Positions 5,418-14,110 of a DNA stretch of 64,000 nt are shown here, piece after piece. Numbering within the stretch: the stretch's first letter is position 1; each line of letters begins with the position of its first letter. A program made the translations under genes and the position numbers. Below the pieces are notes generated by a model. That model was not told where the DNA came from. It worked only from the letters and a program-made list of their open reading frames with translations, and made no database searches. The stretch lies in assembly GCA_040357565.1 (NCBI GenBank), contig JBDODJ010000001.1; one strand, 5' to 3'. Source of the stretch: Cercozoa sp. M6MM (taxonomy: Eukaryota; Protista; Endomyxa: Ascetosporea).

Positions 5418-5957
5418 TCAGCTGGGCAAGTCGGGGCTCGACAGCTCGGCAAACTCGGAGCGCAAGACCCAGCGCGCCTCGCCTTGTCGCGTGCGTCGAA
5501 GCGTCGCCACTCGCCTCAGAATGTGTCTCAGCGTGAGTTTGTCCGAGTCGGCGACGAGACTCGACTCAAAGCGCCGCACGATCTGCTGTGACGTGAGCGA
5601 GCCGCCGCTGCGTCGCAGGAGCTGCAGCACGCGGTGCGCGAGCGAGCCACTGCGCGTGTCACTCGTGCCTCGGTCGCGCGTGTCGCGAGCGACCTGAGCG
5701 CGCTGTTCGCGAAGTCGCGCCAGCACAGAGCTGCCGGAGCTCTGACCTGTCGCCGAGGCCGCCGAGACTCGCTCGGCAAGCAGTGCATGAGCGGCGTGCC
5801 GTCTGGCTGCCCCGCTGCGTCTCAACTCGGCCACGGCTTTGTCCGCCTGCTGCTGCGCTTTCTGCTGCATCACACGCAGTGACGTTCCCAGCTTCGGTGC
5901 CTGCACACACTCGTTCCGTTTCATGCGAGTGTTCAAAGCACACACACGCACGCACGC

Positions 5958-6008
<51 letters not shown>

Positions 6009-6108
6009 NNNNNNNNNNNNNNNNNNNNNNNNNNNNNNNNNNNNNNNNNNNNNNNNNNNNNNNNNNNNNNNNNNNNNNNNNNNNNNNNNNNNNNNNNNNN
6101 NNNNNNNN

Positions 6109-6146
<38 letters not shown>

Positions 6147-9100
6147 GCACACAGAAGGAAGCTACCGCTTCGCTCGCAAGTCGCGAATGATCGAACGCAC
6201 TCGAAACGCCGCCGTGCGAAAGCAGCGCTTTCATCTACCAAACACAAACTCAGTTAGCCCAAGTTAACTCAACGTATAGCGACAAAGTAAAGCGACAAAG
6301 CAAAGCGACAAAGCAAAGCGACAAAGCAACGAAAAAGCAAAGCGAAATCGAGTGAAATCAGAAAAGCAAAGCGAAAAACAAGGCGCTACACTGTGCGTAC
6401 CACAGACTTTTCGGCAGAGTCGTCATTGTCCTCGTCGCCATTGTTATCGTCGCCATTGTTATCGTCGCCATTGTTGTCATCGCTGTCCTCAATGTCGCCT
6501 TCGACGAGAGTTTCGTTCTGCGTGTCGGCGTCGTCGTCCTGGTCGTCGAGACGCAGGAGGTCGGCGAGACTCGTCATGCGGAAGAAACGGCGCGCGTTCG
6601 GGTCCTTCATCACCTTGTCGGACAGGAACTGCTTGTACAACTGCCGCGTGTAGATCTTCTCCTCGATGGTGCCACGCGTCACGAGTCGGTAGATGTGCAC
6701 CGCTCGCTGCTGTCCACTGCACAGCAGTCCATATGGACCAGGCATCCCATCGCAGCCTTATCGAGAATTAAGAGCGGTACATGCGATGTGCTCGCTCTCT
6801 GGCTTGAACGTCCGTCGACGGGTTCCAGTCGGGCTGGAATGACAAGGGGGGTAAAGGGTGCAGTCTAGTCTGTACAGACAGGGGAATGGGTAGGGTATAC
6901 ATCGACGATAACGATGCGATTGGCGGCCGTCAGGTTGAGTCCGAGACCGCCAGCACGCGTGGTCATGAGAAAGACGCGCAGCGACGGGTCGTTGCGGAAG
7001 CGTGCCACCAGTTTGGTGCGCGTGCCGACCGGCGTGGCACCGTCGAGTCGCGCCAAGTGGCACGTGTGCTGCCCGGTGACAGCCTCCAGCAGCTGCTGCA
7101 CAATGTCGGCCATCTGGCGCGTCTGCGTGAAGACTAGGACCTTGTCGTCGGCCTGCTTGAGCCACTGGTGCAGCAGCACCTGCAGTGCCTGCAATTTGCC
7201 GCTGCGTTCCACGGCGCCAAAGTCCTCCGGCAGCGGCGTCGTTTGCTCCTGCCGCGTCTTGGCCGTCACATACCGCAAGTCGGCGTGGTTGCACACCTTT
7301 CGGAGCTGCGTCAGCACGCGCAGCATGTTGCCTCGGTTCGTGTCGCCTGTGCGCAGCACTTTCACCTGTGTCACATGGACGTATAGACATAGACATGGGC
7401 ATATAGACATGGACGTGGACATAGTGTACCACATCAGGCGTATCCAACACACTCAGGTAGGCACGGCGCTGTGCGGCTGTGAGTCGGCAGAACAGCACCT
7501 TCTCGGTCTTCTTGGGCAGAGCGAAAGAGTGGCGCAGGTCGTGCTTCGTGCGTCGCAGCAGATAGGGCGCCACCAGTGCCTTCAGTGCCTTGGCACACCG
7601 CAGGCCGAGTTCCACGTCGCCGCGCGAGGCGCCTTTCGATGCGCCGCGTTTGATCGGCACGCAGAAACGCGACTCGAACACTGCCAACTGCGTCACACCA
7701 AGTCTTTCCTCCTTCTCCCTCCTGTGGAGTTTCAACAAGTGAGACACACCTCGCCCAGTCGGCCAGGCGCGGCAAAGTCCAACAGACTCCAAAGCTCCTT
7801 CAGGTGGTTCTGCAACGGCGCTCCTGACAACTGTTAAAAGTACAGGGCAGGATAGGGTAGGGAGAGGTAGTGTAGGGTAGGTAGGGTAGGGTAGGTAGGG
7901 TAGGGTAGGTAGGGTAGGNNNNNNNNNNGGGTAAAGGGTAAAGGGTGAGGGATAAGGGTAAAGGGTGGGTGGATTAAGTAGGGTACCGCGTCAAGTCGTG
8001 CCCAGCAGAGTGATGCAGCACAAAGACACGAAACTCGGGCGCCCAGCGATGAAACTCACGTGTCCACTGCATACTGTTTCGTTAAGGGAGCAGACAGAGC
8101 CTATTTAGTCGAAGGAGCGCACACCTGAGCGAGCACAGAGGCCGGTGCGCAGATCAGCACCGGTCGCGCCAGTCGGCCCGAGTGTCGCAGTGCGGCCAAG
8201 AACGACACGGTCTGCACTGTCTTTCCGAGTCCCTACACTCCGCCTAGCAGTATAAACTGTACAAATGGACAGGACGGATGTACCATCTCATCCGCGAGGA
8301 TGCCACCGCAGCGTCGACGGTGCAGTGCGAATTGCCACTGGAGACACTGCCGCTGGTGCTTCAGTAGGTTGCGCCACAGGTCACGCGGCACTCGCAGTCG
8401 CCACGGCAGGTGGTGCGGTCTGCTCAAACACTCGGGTACAAACTGGAGCGTACACATGAACCCCGTACACATGGACCCGTGCATACGAACCGGGCACATG
8501 GACTCGAACACATGAACTCCAGACATAAGAAGTGGTACATGTTGCCGCTGCCGCTGCCTCGGCCTTGCGACGCCTTGTCGACCACGAAAACGTCCGGTCC
8601 GGCACGCGGTCGCTGTGACGTTGCCGGCAAGCGTTTCTCGAGCCACCGATGGAACTCCGCGTCCTCTCTGAGTCGCGACTCGACACGTGCACGTTTATCT
8701 TTGGACAGGAAAATATGGCAACAACAACAGCAACACCACCACCAAAAAGGAACACACCTTTATCCATCTGAGCGAGTTGCGATGCGAAGTGCTTGGCGTT
8801 CTCACGCATGCGACCCAAAGCGCGATCGCGCCGCGGTTCGAACACGTCGTCGTGCGTGTCGTCTTCAAAGTGGCTTTGCAAACGCCGCCGTTTCTTCGGT
8901 CGCTCCTCGGTCAGATCGACGACGTCGTCACCTGCTTCGTCGCTGCTCGCTTCGGCCTCGTGCGCTTCGTATCGCTCCTCCTCGCTCTCGTCGATCTCGG
9001 TTTCGTTTTCCTCCACGAATTCGTCGTCAACGTCATCGCTTTTGAGCTCGAACTCGACGTCGTCGTCGTCGTCGGCGCGCTGGTCTGTGTTAGAAATTTC

Positions 9101-9649
9101 GAGTCAAGGCGCAACAAAGCGACACAAAGCGACACAAAGCGACACAAAGTGAAACAAAGCGAAACCAAGTAAAACAAGAAAAAAGCCAGACAAAGCGAAA
9201 TAAAGCAAAGTAACGCGAAATAAAACGAAAAGCGAGCAAAACGGTCTGAAGACAACTGACCTTCTTGATCGGGAACGTACTCAGCGTCGCTGCTCTGCTG
9301 CTCGCTTGCATCGGCAGCCTGCTCTGCAGCCTGCTCGGCAGCCGCTTCATCGCGCACTCTAAGCAAATCCTCTCGCAAGCGACGCAGTCGAGTTTCGAGT
9401 CTCGTGCTTCGCGCCTTTTCGCTCTGAGACAGCGATCGGCGCGCTTCTTTCGCTGTGTCGAACACTGCGTCGAGCTCGGTGCTAGTTGCGCTGACCTGCG
9501 CCTCCAGATCGGCCACTTGGCGTTGCTTCAGTTGCTGCAGCTGTCCACACAAACAAAATTAACCTAGTATTGCAGCTGTGTCAAAAAAGTACCACATTGC
9601 GGCGCACTTGACTGGCGTCTTCTTCATCAAACACGGGTGGTGCCTCCAT
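5418..9649 (-). CDS. ERCC6: SNF2-family DNA translocase, ERCC6/CSB/Rad26 orthologue
   Basis: [15 protein letters not shown] (motif I), [95 protein letters not shown], and a C-terminal winged-helix-like segment [10 protein letters not shown]...LRHILRRVA. The motif II exon is not visible and probably lies in the gap at 7919-7928. Confidence 0.9.
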
Positions 9650-9859: not shown

Positions 9860-10853
9860 ATGTCTCACAATCAGATCAGTTACTTTGCCCAGTTGCCTCG
9901 AAGGTCGACGCGGATTGCCAATGTCCATGCCGAATCGCTTCTCGCGCTGAAAGCTGAGGTGCTGCGACCTTTTTTGGGTTGTTTTTGTGATTTATCTGCG
10001 AACTTGCAAACTTTCGTTTAGGTTTGCCGTACCGAGGCAGCGATCGAAGCTGGCGAATACGAGCGGCCATCGTTGGATGCATTGAGACTACATGAGCGTG
10101 GTAGGCGACGCCGTGGTGCCGATCGGTACGCGAGCAGCCCGAGTACGCAGGGCCCAACCTCACTCGGCGCCAAAGACGAAGAACCCGGCTACTCATCGTT
10201 GGCCGAGCGACTTCGAGCCAAGGCATCGGTCTATCAGTCAATGTGTAAGCTATCAATCCACCCTCCTCCCGAGAGGCAGCTTTCGTTTTCTGTATCCCAA
10301 ACCCTTGTGCAGCGAGTGGCTCAGGGTCTGCGAGCGATGCACTCGTTGATTTCGATCGCAAGCGGCAAGAAGGCCTCGTGACAGAGAGCCCAGAGGAAGC
10401 TGACACCCCTGCCGGATGGTTCCGAGAGTGGATGCGGCTGTACACTGACCCCGACAGCAACCTTGGCGCTGTCGATGATGAGGAGGTTGCCGAGGATGTC
10501 TGGGCACAAGACGAGGATGTGCACCGACCCAAGAAGCGGCGTCGCACGCAAGAGAACGAGCCAGAACTGGCGCCGCTCAACACTGACGTCCTCGGCGCCC
10601 GTCACATCTGGAAGGGTACCGCCCATGTCCTTTATCAAAGCTATGTCAGGTGCACAATCATGTCCTCTGTGCAGTCAATGCCGAGCAGGTACGCGACGTG
10701 CACCGCGCCGAGAAGGAGGAGGCACGTCGACTGCGACGCAAGCAGCGCGCCGAGCAACGCGCCAAACGCAAGCGACTACTTGAGCTGCGGCAGCAGGAGG
10801 AAATGCGGCAAGAGGTACTTGATCGGTTGCTGGGCCTCGCCAAAGATGACTAG
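9860..10853 (+). CDS. CCDC174-like coiled-coil protein
   Basis: Spliced exons give AESLLALKAE, ERLRAKASVYQSM, ALVDFDRK and a basic C-terminal coiled coil, recalling the CCDC174/DUF4078 pattern (SLVDLKAE...KAKLYEKM...LVDF). Confidence 0.6.
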
Positions 10854-10936: not shown

Positions 10937-10942
10937 AAAAAA
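10937..10942 (-). terminator. Putative RNA polymerase III terminator (T6)
   Basis: TTTTTT on the minus strand 7 nt after the discriminator of the outer tRNA. Confidence 0.7.
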
Positions 10943-10949
10943 CACAGCG

Positions 10950-11136
10950 CGATCCCGACTGGACTCGAACCAGTATCCACTCGAACTGCTCACAACTGCT
11001 CTTTGATATAGTCTTCCGCTCTACCACTGAGCTACTCGCCCGAGGGCGAGGCAGGGCTCGAACCTGCGACCTGAAGATTAGGAAATGATGGAGCCCCGTA
11101 GGGCAGGCAAGCGCTCTACCATTGAGCTACAGGATC
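10950..11136 (-). tRNA. Outer tRNA body (5' half 11136-11107, 3' half 10984-10950) whose anticodon region is replaced by ~120 nt containing a permuted tRNA
   Basis: Acceptor GATCCTG/CGGGATC plus G73; D-arm GCTC-AATGGTA-GAGC; T-arm ACTGG-TTCGAGT-CCAGT; A15:U48; anticodon stem CTTG/CGAG. Anticodon ambiguous (GCA or GCC depending on junction). Confidence 0.8.
11012..11077 (-). tRNA. Circularly permuted tRNA body (3' half 11077-11043 precedes 5' half 11041-11012), nested inside the outer tRNA
   Basis: 3' half TCTTC-AGGTC-GCAGG-TTCGAGC-CCTGC-CTCGCCC-T, a 1-nt spacer, then 5' half GGGCGAG-TA-GCTC-AGTGGTA-GAGC-G-GAAGA. Perfect 7-bp acceptor and 5-bp anticodon stems; G15:C48. Anticodon undetermined. 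Confidence 0.85.
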
Positions 11137-11736
11137 TAAACAACACCAAAAAGTCAGAAGGTTGTGCATGCGCATTTTCTTCTGCCAGTAGGGTTGTTCT
11201 GCCAGCTTATGGGTCAATTGCCTGTGGCAGGCTGGTGTGCTTTTCGATCCGTAGGTAAGCGAGTACTCGAGAAATACAGATTAGTGTTCCCTCATCATCG
11301 TTTAGAGACTTCGGCCAGAGAACGAGTGAGTCACTTAATTGACAATGGATCCGATTCCATGGTTGGAGCAGGTAGCGCTACTAGTAAGGAGGCGTCGTCG
11401 GCGGCGCCTAGGCATCGCGGCTCTCGTATCTCCACTCAATACTCTAAATAAACGCACACCTGGCCAGTCGGGAACCTTTTGTGACGGCTCGTTTTCTGCT
11501 GACCACCATCTGCGAGGCCGGGGCGGCACGGCACTGTGACTCGACTCGGCGGAACTACAGAGCAGTATCTGGTACCGTCGCGTACGCTATATTTAGTTCC
11601 TAGCGTAGTACAAGCACCCTTCCTGTTCGCCAGTGTTCAATCATGTACAAGTATGTCAGTGACGGATCGCATCGAAATTGCAAAATCGGCGGAAGTATTG
11701 ACGTTTCGTTCCAACCCCAAACGAGAGTGAAACGGC

Positions 11737-12388
11737 TCAGATATCGTCGAGATCGTCGTCCAAGTCAAAGACGCGTCGGTCGTGCATTTCGACATGAGTG
11801 CTCGTTGAGGAAGTTCGCGTTCCCGACACGGCCGACTCGACCTCTGCCGTCTGCGCTTGCTGATCTTCCTTTTCTAACTTCGTTTGCTCTTCTTCTTCCT
11901 CTTCAATACCTAAAACAACGAAACAATTTACACAGAGACAATTAAGCAAAGGAGACAGTCAGCAGGCGTACCAGCAATCTGCAGCAACCGGTCGACACTG
12001 CAGTGCAAAAGCGATCGCTCCATCAGAGACGGTTGCGGTGCTACCAAAGCATACAGTGGCACCACTCTGATCATACACATGCCAACTGAGGTACCTGGCG
12101 GTTGCACGGTCGCAACGAGGCCACTGGCGCCTCCGGGAGGATGTGCCGTCGACGCGAGTGACTCGGCCAGTTTCAGCACCTGCTCCACTGCCGCCTCATC
12201 TGCGCAAACTCATATTAAACTTCCCTCAATACAACACAGAACAGGCTCATGTAAAACTCACATCTTGGCAAGGGTCGATCGTGCTTGTCACGCATCCGTT
12301 GCGTGTCCTCGCGGAGAGCGATACAACGCACCTGCAACTCCAACATCTCATCGGCCAGCTCGGCCGCTGCTAACCTCACATCCTCCAT
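11737..12388 (-). CDS. Hypothetical spliced protein with acidic C-terminus
   Basis: Short exons bounded by GT-AG introns (MEDVRLAAAELADEMLELQ...), ending GIEEEEEE...FDLDDDLDDI*. Start approximate. Confidence 0.5.
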
Positions 12389-12563: not shown

Positions 12564-14110
12564 ATGTCGGCGCGTGCTAATTCGCTTCTTGTTGGCACAG
12601 GAGAATATGTGACCGGTTTCGTCAATGGCGCTGCGTCAGGCAGCGACAAGAGGTGTGCAGCTTCGCTTTCGCTTGCTGGTCGGGTGTGCATGCCAATGTG
12701 ATGGTTCAGGTGCGGCGTGGTCGCTCTCGTGCACTTTGACCTGCGTCGGCGCGGTCTGCACGGCGACGTGATCAAGATGTGCGGCACACAGGGCGGCAAG
12801 TTTCCGCAGATCCGCGCGCACCTGCGTGCCGCAATCGAGAACAAGTACCGCGACATGGACACGTCGTTTGAATCCTTCCCGAACGACGATGTTGAGCGTG
12901 ACACTTGTGCGTATGGTAAGCTTGGTGTTTCTTTGCTGCTTTGACGCGTATGGAGAAATGTGCGCATGCAGAGCGGGCGATCGAATCGATGCAGCCGGGC
13001 GACACGTGCACGATCTTCACGCCCGACTTCTGTCACTTTGACATCGCCAAGTGCGCCATGCAGCGCGGTCTGCACGTGCTGTTGACGAAGCCGCCGGTGC
13101 AAACACTGGCGCAGCACCGTGAGCTGGTGCAGTTGGCACGTGCCAAGTCGCTGCACGCGCAGGTCGAAGTGCACAAGCGCTGGGACCCGATCTACGCCGA
13201 CGCTGCCACGCGCATCCGCGCGGGTGAGGTCGGTGACTTGACCTACTTCCACGCCTTTATGTCGCAGCCCAAGAAACAGCTCGAAACCTTCCGTGCCTGG
13301 GCTGGCAAGAACGGTATCACTTCCCCTTTACCTCTTGGCTACCCTACCCCCTCGGGATAGGTTGCGACATCAGCTACTACCTGAACTCGCACCACGTGGA
13401 CTTCCTGTGCTGGGCACTGCGAGGTCGCGCACGTGCCGTGTCGGTGAGTGCGTCAGCCTCGAGTGGCGTCGCTCGGCGAGTGCTGCAGCGCGACTTGGCC
13501 GACTCGGTGACGCTGCTGGTGCAGTTCGTCAGTGCCACCGGCAACATGGGCACGGCCGTGTTCACCTCGTCGTGGACGGCCGCCGAGAGCGACGTTCACT
13601 CGCAGCAGCGTTTCTTCTTTCAAGGTACAATCCCTCCGCAGAGCGCTGCGTTTCTTGTAGTCGCTCTCATTGTGTGGTCACAGGAACCGAGAGCGACATC
13701 ACTGTGGATCAAGCACACCGTGGCTACACGATCGCTTCGCGTGGACTCGCGAGTGTCAACCCGCTGTTCATGAAGTACACTCCCGACGCACGCGGTCACT
13801 TTGCCGGACAGTCCGGCTACGGCTACAAGAGCATCGAGGAGTTCCATCGGGCTGTACAGTGGTACCTTTATACCTCTACCTTTATTCAGACTCTTGGCGA
13901 CCCCCCCCCCCCCCGCACAGCACGCGTGGTGGCGCGAGTCCCGAGGAGCTGCACGAGGAGCTGCCGACCCTTGCAGCCACGCAGCAGCTGACGGCAATCC
14001 TCGAGGCCGGTGCCAAGTCGCTCCGGGAGAACGGCCGGCCCGTCAAGCTCAAGTGGGCCTCGCCGGTTGCCACGCCACTCGACTGTGACAATGTCATCGG
14101 CTTTGAATGA
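12564..14110 (+). CDS. Gfo/Idh/MocA oxidoreductase, GaaA-type D-galacturonate reductase-like
   Basis: [93 protein letters not shown] closely follow fungal GaaA-type enzymes. Confidence 0.85.

Follow-up and report, generated by a model that had tools for sequence, protein, structure and literature searches.

A circularly permuted tRNA nested within the anticodon loop of a second tRNA at one nuclear locus of Cercozoa sp. M6MM

A 187-nt unit in contig JBDODJ010000001.1 (assembly GCA_040357565.1) of Cercozoa sp. M6MM contains the arms of two tRNAs, here termed A and B, joined by two linkers, and raises the question of what it encodes: two decoding tRNAs, and by which cuts, or one tRNA-shaped RNA. 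A preliminary description of the locus had left both options standing. M6MM is Lemnamoeba sinaloensis, a member of the Apofilosa with a genome of 27 Mb (PMC13746701), and the Apofilosa have been placed next to Retaria (PMC11069148). The window (the whole stretch of DNA analyzed, 64 kb in length) is eukaryotic nuclear DNA.

The unit is a nested arrangement, in which the circularly permuted tRNA B lies within the anticodon loop of tRNA A at a single minus-strand locus. The following elements were distinguished in 5′-to-3′ order on the minus strand (Table 1): (i) the 5′ half of A, with the 5′ strand of the acceptor stem, a D arm with A15 and U20, the 5′ strand of the anticodon stem, C32 and U33; (ii) linker 1 (29 nt); (iii) the 3′ half of B, with the 3′ strand of the anticodon stem, a variable loop with C48, the T arm, the 3′ acceptor strand and U73; (iv) a single C; (v) the 5′ half of B, starting with GGG, with a D arm carrying G15 and U20, the 5′ strand of the anticodon stem, C32 and U33; (vi) linker 2 (27 nt); (vii) the 3′ half of A, with U39 facing C31, a variable loop with U48, the T arm, the 3′ acceptor strand and G73; and (viii) a T6 run. 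The C31-U39 mismatch of A and the GGG...CCC-U73 body of B, whose acceptor ends are joined by 2 nt (U73 and one C), had been described before and were confirmed.

Table 1. Features of the nested tRNA unit, with coordinates in the 64-kb window and the basis of each assignment.
Feature	Coordinates	Strand	Basis
Whole 187-nt unit	10950..11136	-	sequence, constrained folding
tRNA A, 5′ half (positions 1-33)	11105..11136	-	fold; Rfam tRNA 26 bits over 11130-11050
22-nt insert 5′ of the proposed Arg anticodon, putative intron	11083..11104	-	first part common to second locus
CCU + A37, proposed Arg anticodon of A (of B in the single-junction alternative)	11079..11082	-	junction modelling
tRNA B, 3′ half (positions 38-73)	11043..11078	-	fold
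One C linking U73 to G1 of B (intervening sequence), CCA not encoded	11042..11042	-	sequence
tRNA B, 5′ half (positions 1-33)	11010..11041	-	fold; Rfam tRNA 28 bits over 11041-10950
20-nt insert 5′ of the proposed Cys anticodon, putative intron at 33/34	10990..11009	-	junction modelling
GCA + G37, proposed Cys anticodon of B (of A in the single-junction alternative)	10986..10989	-	junction modelling
tRNA A, 3′ half (positions 38-73)	10950..10985	-	fold
T6 run 8 nt past G73, likely Pol III terminator	10937..10942	-	sequence

In the swapped order 23 of the 24 acceptor and anticodon stem pairs form (acceptor stems 7/7 and 7/7, anticodon stems 4/5 and 5/5 for A and B, respectively), and none of 500,000 shuffles reached this number, the best of them giving 20. 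The plain tandem order gives 10/24 (acceptor stems 3/7 and 4/7, anticodon stems 1/5 and 2/5), and the 15:48 pairs (A-U in A, G-C in B) are compatible with the swapped order only. Permuted B folds into a full cloverleaf (acceptor 7/7, D 4/4, anticodon stem 5/5 and T 5/5 pairs, with G15-C48). A contig of sequencing run X1 (depth 523), possibly the source data of the assembly, spans the unit with no differences. The crossed-order pairing, the 15:48 pairs, the shuffles and the identical X1 contig together show that the nested layout is real. Plain tandem tRNA genes were rejected on the stem pairs, and ARAGORN called neither of the two; an assembly error is unlikely given the X1 contig, which may be the source data. 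The unit is also not a split (trans-spliced) tRNA with halves at separate loci, all four halves being located within 187 nt. The longest U run inside the unit is 3, and in the absence of an internal run of at least four U residues, a single Pol III transcript is likely; for A, the A box and B box (the D and T arm motifs) are followed by the poly-T terminator in the expected order. A palindrome around GCATGC (11163-11174) is located at roughly the distance from A (30 nt upstream) at which one might look for a TATA-like element; the 64 nt upstream of A contain no TATA, and a T5 run sits closer than this palindrome.

The linkers had been described as one continuous helix joining the two elbows, and an intact dumbbell-shaped mimic of tRNA had been offered as one possible outcome. 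The sequences of both linkers were quoted correctly, and the three complementary blocks can pair: CUGC/GCAG (11106-11103 with 10989-10986), UACGG/UUGUG (11100-11096 with 10995-10991, three of the five pairs being G-U) and GCUC/GAGC (11094-11091 with 11001-10998). The continuity did not hold: the 13 pairs are split by internal loops of 1x2, 2x1 and 1x2 nt, and a 13x10-nt open loop (11090-11078 and 11011-11002) separates them from the anticodon stem of B, so that the elbows are not joined by one helix. With both elbows fixed, the 13-pair linker fold is the best fold (gain of -13.8 kcal/mol); equally good folds were reached with shuffled linkers in 299 of 1000 mononucleotide and 199 of 1000 dinucleotide trials, and at least 13 inter-linker pairs appeared in 549 and 376 of 1000, respectively. 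When linker 2 only was shuffled, 335/1000 did as well, and the linker duplex alone was equalled by 141/1000 mononucleotide and 81/1000 dinucleotide shuffles. In the unconstrained fold the linker pair probability is at most 0.01, a weak test in which the D, T and anticodon arms score low too, and whole-RNA folding is no better than that of shuffles (z = -1.13). The linker helix gives no support to an intact RNA.

The topological likeness of the proposed mimic to YrlA (Rfam RF02553; bioRxiv 10.1101/312249), a bacterial Y RNA-like tRNA mimic, is real. Like YrlA, the unit has D and T arms, a Levitt pair, a loop-closed acceptor stem and a long stem replacing the anticodon arm, and B is a tRNA-like domain with a closed acceptor stem. 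Three sub-threshold Rfam matches were obtained in the window, all of them at the unit: YrlA (45.2 bits, gathering score 69) and tRNA (28 and 26 bits, cut-off 29). The long stem here, unlike that of YrlA, ends in a second tRNA body, the host is eukaryotic, and the match covers model positions 23-88 of 114, i.e., the tRNA-like part without the model ends. It is rather unlikely that the product is a non-decoding RNA (either the whole 187-nt dumbbell or A and B still containing their inserts) acting as a tRNA-shaped scaffold or decoy, in which B would resemble the closed-acceptor domain of YrlA. Selection does seem to target the elbows and acceptors, no plain anticodon is present, the linker pairing is the best constrained fold, the 2-nt acceptor loop looks hard to open and a splice motif is lacking. 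However, this pairing is neither above shuffles nor continuous, the YrlA match is partial and below the gathering score, and no use would be made of the words composed of a valid anticodon and purine 37 at the linker ends or of the full 7-bp acceptors and their fitting discriminators. Quite unlikely, too, is a unit that was never split, i.e., a eukaryotic double-elbow YrlA-like mimic derived from two tRNA genes, with one open and one sealed acceptor, of which a second locus (see below) would be a one-elbow family member.

If the unit yields two tRNAs, the cuts have to be placed, and all 16 single-junction products were modelled. Splicing at 37/38 leaves pyrimidines at position 37 (C37 in A, U37 in B), and other single junctions give GCA or GCC in A and CCU, ACU, AUU or AUA in B, as the preliminary description had stated. 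A canonical 37/38 intron in A as written would combine C37 and a Gly anticodon with an acceptor that is not of the Gly type; a normal 37/38 loop is obtained only after removal of the putative insert. In B, the 37/38 junction gives U37 and AUA, Arg(CCU) is valid, and Cys(GCA) is valid with an extra insert removed. The anticodons AUA (Tyr), AUU (Asn) and ACU (Ser) in B would be open to misreading through inosine 34. These assignments are disfavored, Tyr identity requiring C1-G72, A73 and G34 (PMC9976931). According to the same source, Cys tRNA requires U73 and Gly tRNA requires C2-G71 and G3-C70, while the Arg elements are C35 and U36, with U20 accepted in yeast and stramenopiles, position 73 being A/G or free (it is ignored by yeast ArgRS) and A38 listed (PMC9976931). 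The acceptor of A, with G73, A2-U71 and U3-A70, conflicts with both the Cys and the Gly rules. Non-canonical splice positions are the likelier of the two outcomes proposed before, but not in the form given, in which every single-junction product of A violates the identity rules (PMC9976931).

A scheme with one non-canonical junction per tRNA, and thus four cuts, would give B as Arg(CCU) at 31/32-33/34 and A as Cys(GCA) at 33/34-35/36 or Gly(GCC) at 36/37. It has the fewest steps, all its loops have the valid form Y32-U33-NNN-R37, and B as Arg satisfies U20, C35, U36 and A38, position 73 being free in yeast (PMC9976931). At 34/35, the best junction of A, 8/10 bulge-helix-bulge (BHB)-like pairs are formed. 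This value, however, is equalled by 266 of 5000 shuffles, and the best loop junction of B (6/10 pairs) by 4349 of 5000. Moreover, G73 of A violates the Cys rule and its acceptor the Gly rules (PMC9976931), and the second locus links the Arg word of linker 1 to an A-like variable loop. We consider this scheme unlikely.

Both linkers start with CU and end with NNN-purine-N, and a Y-U start combined with a purine at position 37, counted from the 3′ stem, occurred in both linkers in 824 of 200,000 shuffles. Linker 1 ends with CCU-A (Arg), adjoining the 3′ half of B with the Cys base U73, and linker 2 ends with GCA-G (Cys), adjoining the 3′ half of A with G73; an Arg anticodon and GCA, each with a purine, at the two linker ends were found in 77 of 200,000 shuffles, by a criterion picked post hoc. 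Each of these anticodons suits the body that supplies the 5′ half upstream of its linker (Arg-CCU for A with G73, Cys-GCA for B with U73). If each linker is assigned to the preceding 5′ half, A becomes Arg(CCU) and B becomes Cys(GCA), with a crossover at 36/37 to 38/39. The explanation that we prefer, tentatively and with somewhat less than even confidence, is that a single Pol III precursor, in which B lies back-to-front in the anticodon loop of A, may be cut into tRNA-Arg(CCU) and tRNA-Cys(GCA).

From the observed layout, the two bodies and the terminator we infer processing in four steps. First, the inserts of 22 nt (linker 1) and 20 nt (linker 2), each just 5′ of an anticodon, would be removed by a route that we leave unnamed. 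The strands would then carry the full loops CU-CCU-A and CU-GCA-G, on which the 37/38 ruler of the splicing endonuclease, applied from either body, would mark the same two bonds (11079/11078 and 10986/10985), with nothing left over. Ligation would produce a linear A of 72 nt, not counting CCA, and circularization of the excised piece would yield pre-B as a 73-nt circle. Finally, RNase P and RNase Z would open the acceptor loop of this circle, and CCA would be added. The boundary of the 22-nt insert could lie anywhere from 31/32 to 33/34, and the crossover could equally be at 36/37 or 38/39. On this explanation the pairing of the linkers is incidental.

Among the schemes tried, both products of the Arg(CCU) and Cys(GCA) scheme would conform to the identity rules (U73 and GCA for Cys; C35, U36 and U20 for Arg), and a purine at position 37 would be restored in both tRNAs. 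The bodies look intact, with irregularities in the loops only, and the A-like second locus again seems to have an Arg anticodon 3′ of the insert. ARAGORN accepts both modelled products as tRNAs, which does not discriminate between schemes, since all 16 single-junction products were accepted too. Parts of the proposed route have precedents: excised tRNA introns are circularized by RtcB (PMC10275265), permuted tRNAs mature via a circle (PMC3978253), some permuted tRNA genes carry an additional intron (PMC3728597), and introns common to dissimilar tRNA bodies have been reported, as have tiny introns whose mechanism of removal is not known (PMC4090602).

Several features count against this explanation. 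Six cuts are needed, more than in the alternatives, and the insert junctions have no BHB motif; a strict BHB was found neither at the inserts nor at the crossover (central helix of at most 3/4 pairs). The anticodon-intron pair, in which position 32 pairs with the antepenultimate purine of the intron (PMC10275265; PMC4090602), is C-C in both A and B in register; in A a C32-G pair is present 2 nt out of register, and a cut defined by it was rejected on inspection (3/5 stem pairs, 3-nt variable loop). In A the C31-U39 mismatch stays, and U38 replaces the listed Arg element A38. The 1-nt spacer of B, without encoded CCA, is below the 5-85 nt of algal permuted tRNA genes, and the archaeal 1-nt case has CCA encoded (PMC3218864). 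The genome paper reports a “full set” of tRNAs, with 461 genes detected (PMC13746701), so that neither product may be needed.

A second locus is represented in run X1 by another contig (798 nt, depth 503 versus 523), which aligns to positions 11087-11130 over 44 nt with 4 differences, matching the D arm and anticodon stem of A and the first 20 nt of linker 1. Its assignment to the same genome rests on the depth. The locus is known from 104 letters, the T arm not being among them. The 30 letters upstream contain a different acceptor strand, with four of the first six bases changed relative to A, and by eye this strand pairs with the 3′ strand of A at only five of seven places. In the 30 letters downstream, also judged by eye, an echo of the end of linker 1 is followed by CU-UCU-AC, five bases and UGGA, which resembles the variable loop of A and not that of B. 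This locus looks like A without B, i.e., an Arg gene with the same insert start 5′ of an Arg-UCU anticodon; alternatively, CUCCA and its UGGAG could be the two strands of a hairpin. The start of linker 1 appears either to predate the acceptor difference or to have been copied across it, and the two loci may represent a tRNA gene family characterized by inserts 5′ of the anticodon. The exact pattern of the second locus had no matches in prokaryote genomes and viral contigs. The 22-nt insert opens with a hairpin, GCCC-UACG-GGGC (11104-11093, minus strand), that begins directly after U33 of A, within the part common to both loci. This hairpin competes with the linker pairing (-7.2 kcal/mol alone, 5 kcal/mol worse in context), and its C-UACG-G tetraloop is a candidate processing signal.

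The same insert contains the word CU-ACG-G, and two Arg tRNAs could be derived from the unit if linker 1 lost 5 nt at its start, turning A into Arg(ACG), and B became Arg(CCU). Linker 1 has two Y-U-NNN-R words, both Arg, the conserved insert start at the second locus would be accounted for, and 3-nt introns are excised in a nucleomorph (PMC4090602). We regard this derivation as very doubtful, as it demands a 5-nt intron without a motif and leaves unexplained the GGG/CCC-U73 body of B, the GCA-G word and nine conserved bases past the would-be G37.

A minor possibility, to be taken somewhat more seriously, is that the unit is a relic or dispensable copy of once cross-folding tandem intron-bearing genes or of a former nested pair, with loops scrambled (e.g., by slippage) and no useful product. 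The genome is rich in simple repeats, with the full tRNA set reported (PMC13746701), both loops contain short repeats, including an 8-nt direct repeat in linker 2, no splice motif is present, C31 faces U39, and no homologue was found in the metagenome, viral and prokaryote scans. Against decay, the stems have stayed intact over approximately 130 nt, as have the conserved loop bases and both 15:48 pairs, with irregularities restricted to the loops, and the start of linker 1 is retained at the second locus despite the changed acceptor strand. The copies of the exact 8-nt repeat (11001-10994 and 10991-10984) lie 10 nt apart and yield two GCA-G words. The T-loop word of A is also found twice, in the 10991-10984 region and at 10970-10963.

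The homologue scans used exact patterns, and the metagenome, viral and prokaryote collections hold few rhizarian nuclei, so their empty results say little. Metagenome contigs had no match to the 5′ pattern of A, and their two matches to a permuted Cys-type pattern were both ordinary tandem tRNA arrays. Three pattern scans of viral contigs gave 0, 30 and 0 matches; the 30 are D-arm look-alikes in plain order, not homologues, with the anticodons GUU (15), UAU (6), UUU (3), GUG (2), GUA (2), GAA (1) and GAU (1), and all seven of them that have the CUUGC strand of A carry G39, not U39. Two pattern scans of prokaryote genomes gave no matches each. In runs X2 and X3, from two other organisms, contigs match 11018-11035 and 11050-11073, i.e., B-like D and T arms, in a tRNA-like gene of plain order; by eye, this gene has a 16-nt anticodon loop without the canonical Y32-U33 start, an acceptor of apparently 6 bp and a long poly-T directly 3′.

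The unit appears to be intergenic, between an ORF on the plus strand ending at 10853 and an ORF on the minus strand ending at 11737, neither of them with a Pfam match. Neighboring genes include an intron-rich SNF2-family helicase (~5600-9550, minus strand; piece 6901-7368 matches Pfam Helicase_C and is 100% identical to an NCBI protein labelled Cercozoa sp. M6MM), which we take to be ERCC6/Rad26-like, and a Gfo/Idh/MocA oxidoreductase (12941-13360, plus strand); no connection of either to tRNA processing was seen. A motif scan of the whole window revealed no further tRNA arm pair, and ARAGORN with default settings reported no tRNA genes in the 64 kb. With a relaxed threshold, it labelled the unit Leu(CAG) with a 106-nt intron, a call rejected because of U37, G73 and the class I D arm. 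Automated tRNA counts for the M6MM genome may include mislabels of this kind. In the four supplements of the genome paper, the terms tRNA, anticodon and splicing endonuclease gave no hits (PMC13746701).

Among known systems, B resembles in layout the type II permuted tRNA genes (37/38 junction) of Cyanidioschyzon merolae, prasinophytes and the Bigelowiella nucleomorph, in which the 3′ half likewise precedes the 5′ half on the same strand, a spacer joins the acceptor ends, the body is normal and, in some cases, an intron is also present (PMC3978253; PMC3728597). Unlike in these genes, the leader and trailer here are the halves of a second tRNA, the junction has no BHB, the 1-nt spacer is without CCA, and the host is the nucleus of a non-photosynthetic rhizarian, a source of none of the 34 genes reviewed in the available text of PMC3978253. 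Since B has neither a BHB nor a relaxed BHB, it was not filed as a plain permuted tRNA gene. Permuted genes have been suggested to originate from cross-folding of tandem intron-bearing tRNA genes (Tocchini-Valentini 2012, cited in PMC3978253), and there, too, the inner 3′ half and the next 5′ half form a permuted tRNA; that transcript was artificial, whereas at the M6MM locus a tRNA is formed by the outer halves as well, and the diverged stems pair only when crossed. Excised tRNA introns are also functional or circular RNAs in the archaeal pre-tRNA-Trp, whose intron holds a box C/D RNA, and in the tRNA intronic circles made by RtcB (PMC4090602; PMC10275265), with the difference that the cargo here is a tRNA. 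In its available text, a 2026 review (PMC13578239) mentions no permuted genes outside archaea, algae and a nucleomorph and has no hits for “nested.” A search by title and abstract start gave nothing on rhizarian nuclear tRNA structure, and no description of a tRNA within a tRNA intron was found in the searched literature, whose coverage leaves out most subscription papers. In layout the locus differs from the disrupted tRNA genes described there.

If the Arg(CCU) and Cys(GCA) reading is true, the intron of one tRNA would be the precursor of another, one pair of cuts would yield two tRNAs, and in a non-algal nucleus, inserts lying 5′ of the anticodon would be excised without the help of a BHB motif. 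The locus would be an example from nature of tandem cross-folding, the route by which permuted tRNAs are proposed to have originated, and unlike lone permuted genes it would keep the A and B boxes in normal order. M6MM is cultured and a chromosome-level assembly exists, which makes this reading directly testable. Since standard tools miss or mislabel this locus, rhizarian tRNA sets may hide more of its kind.
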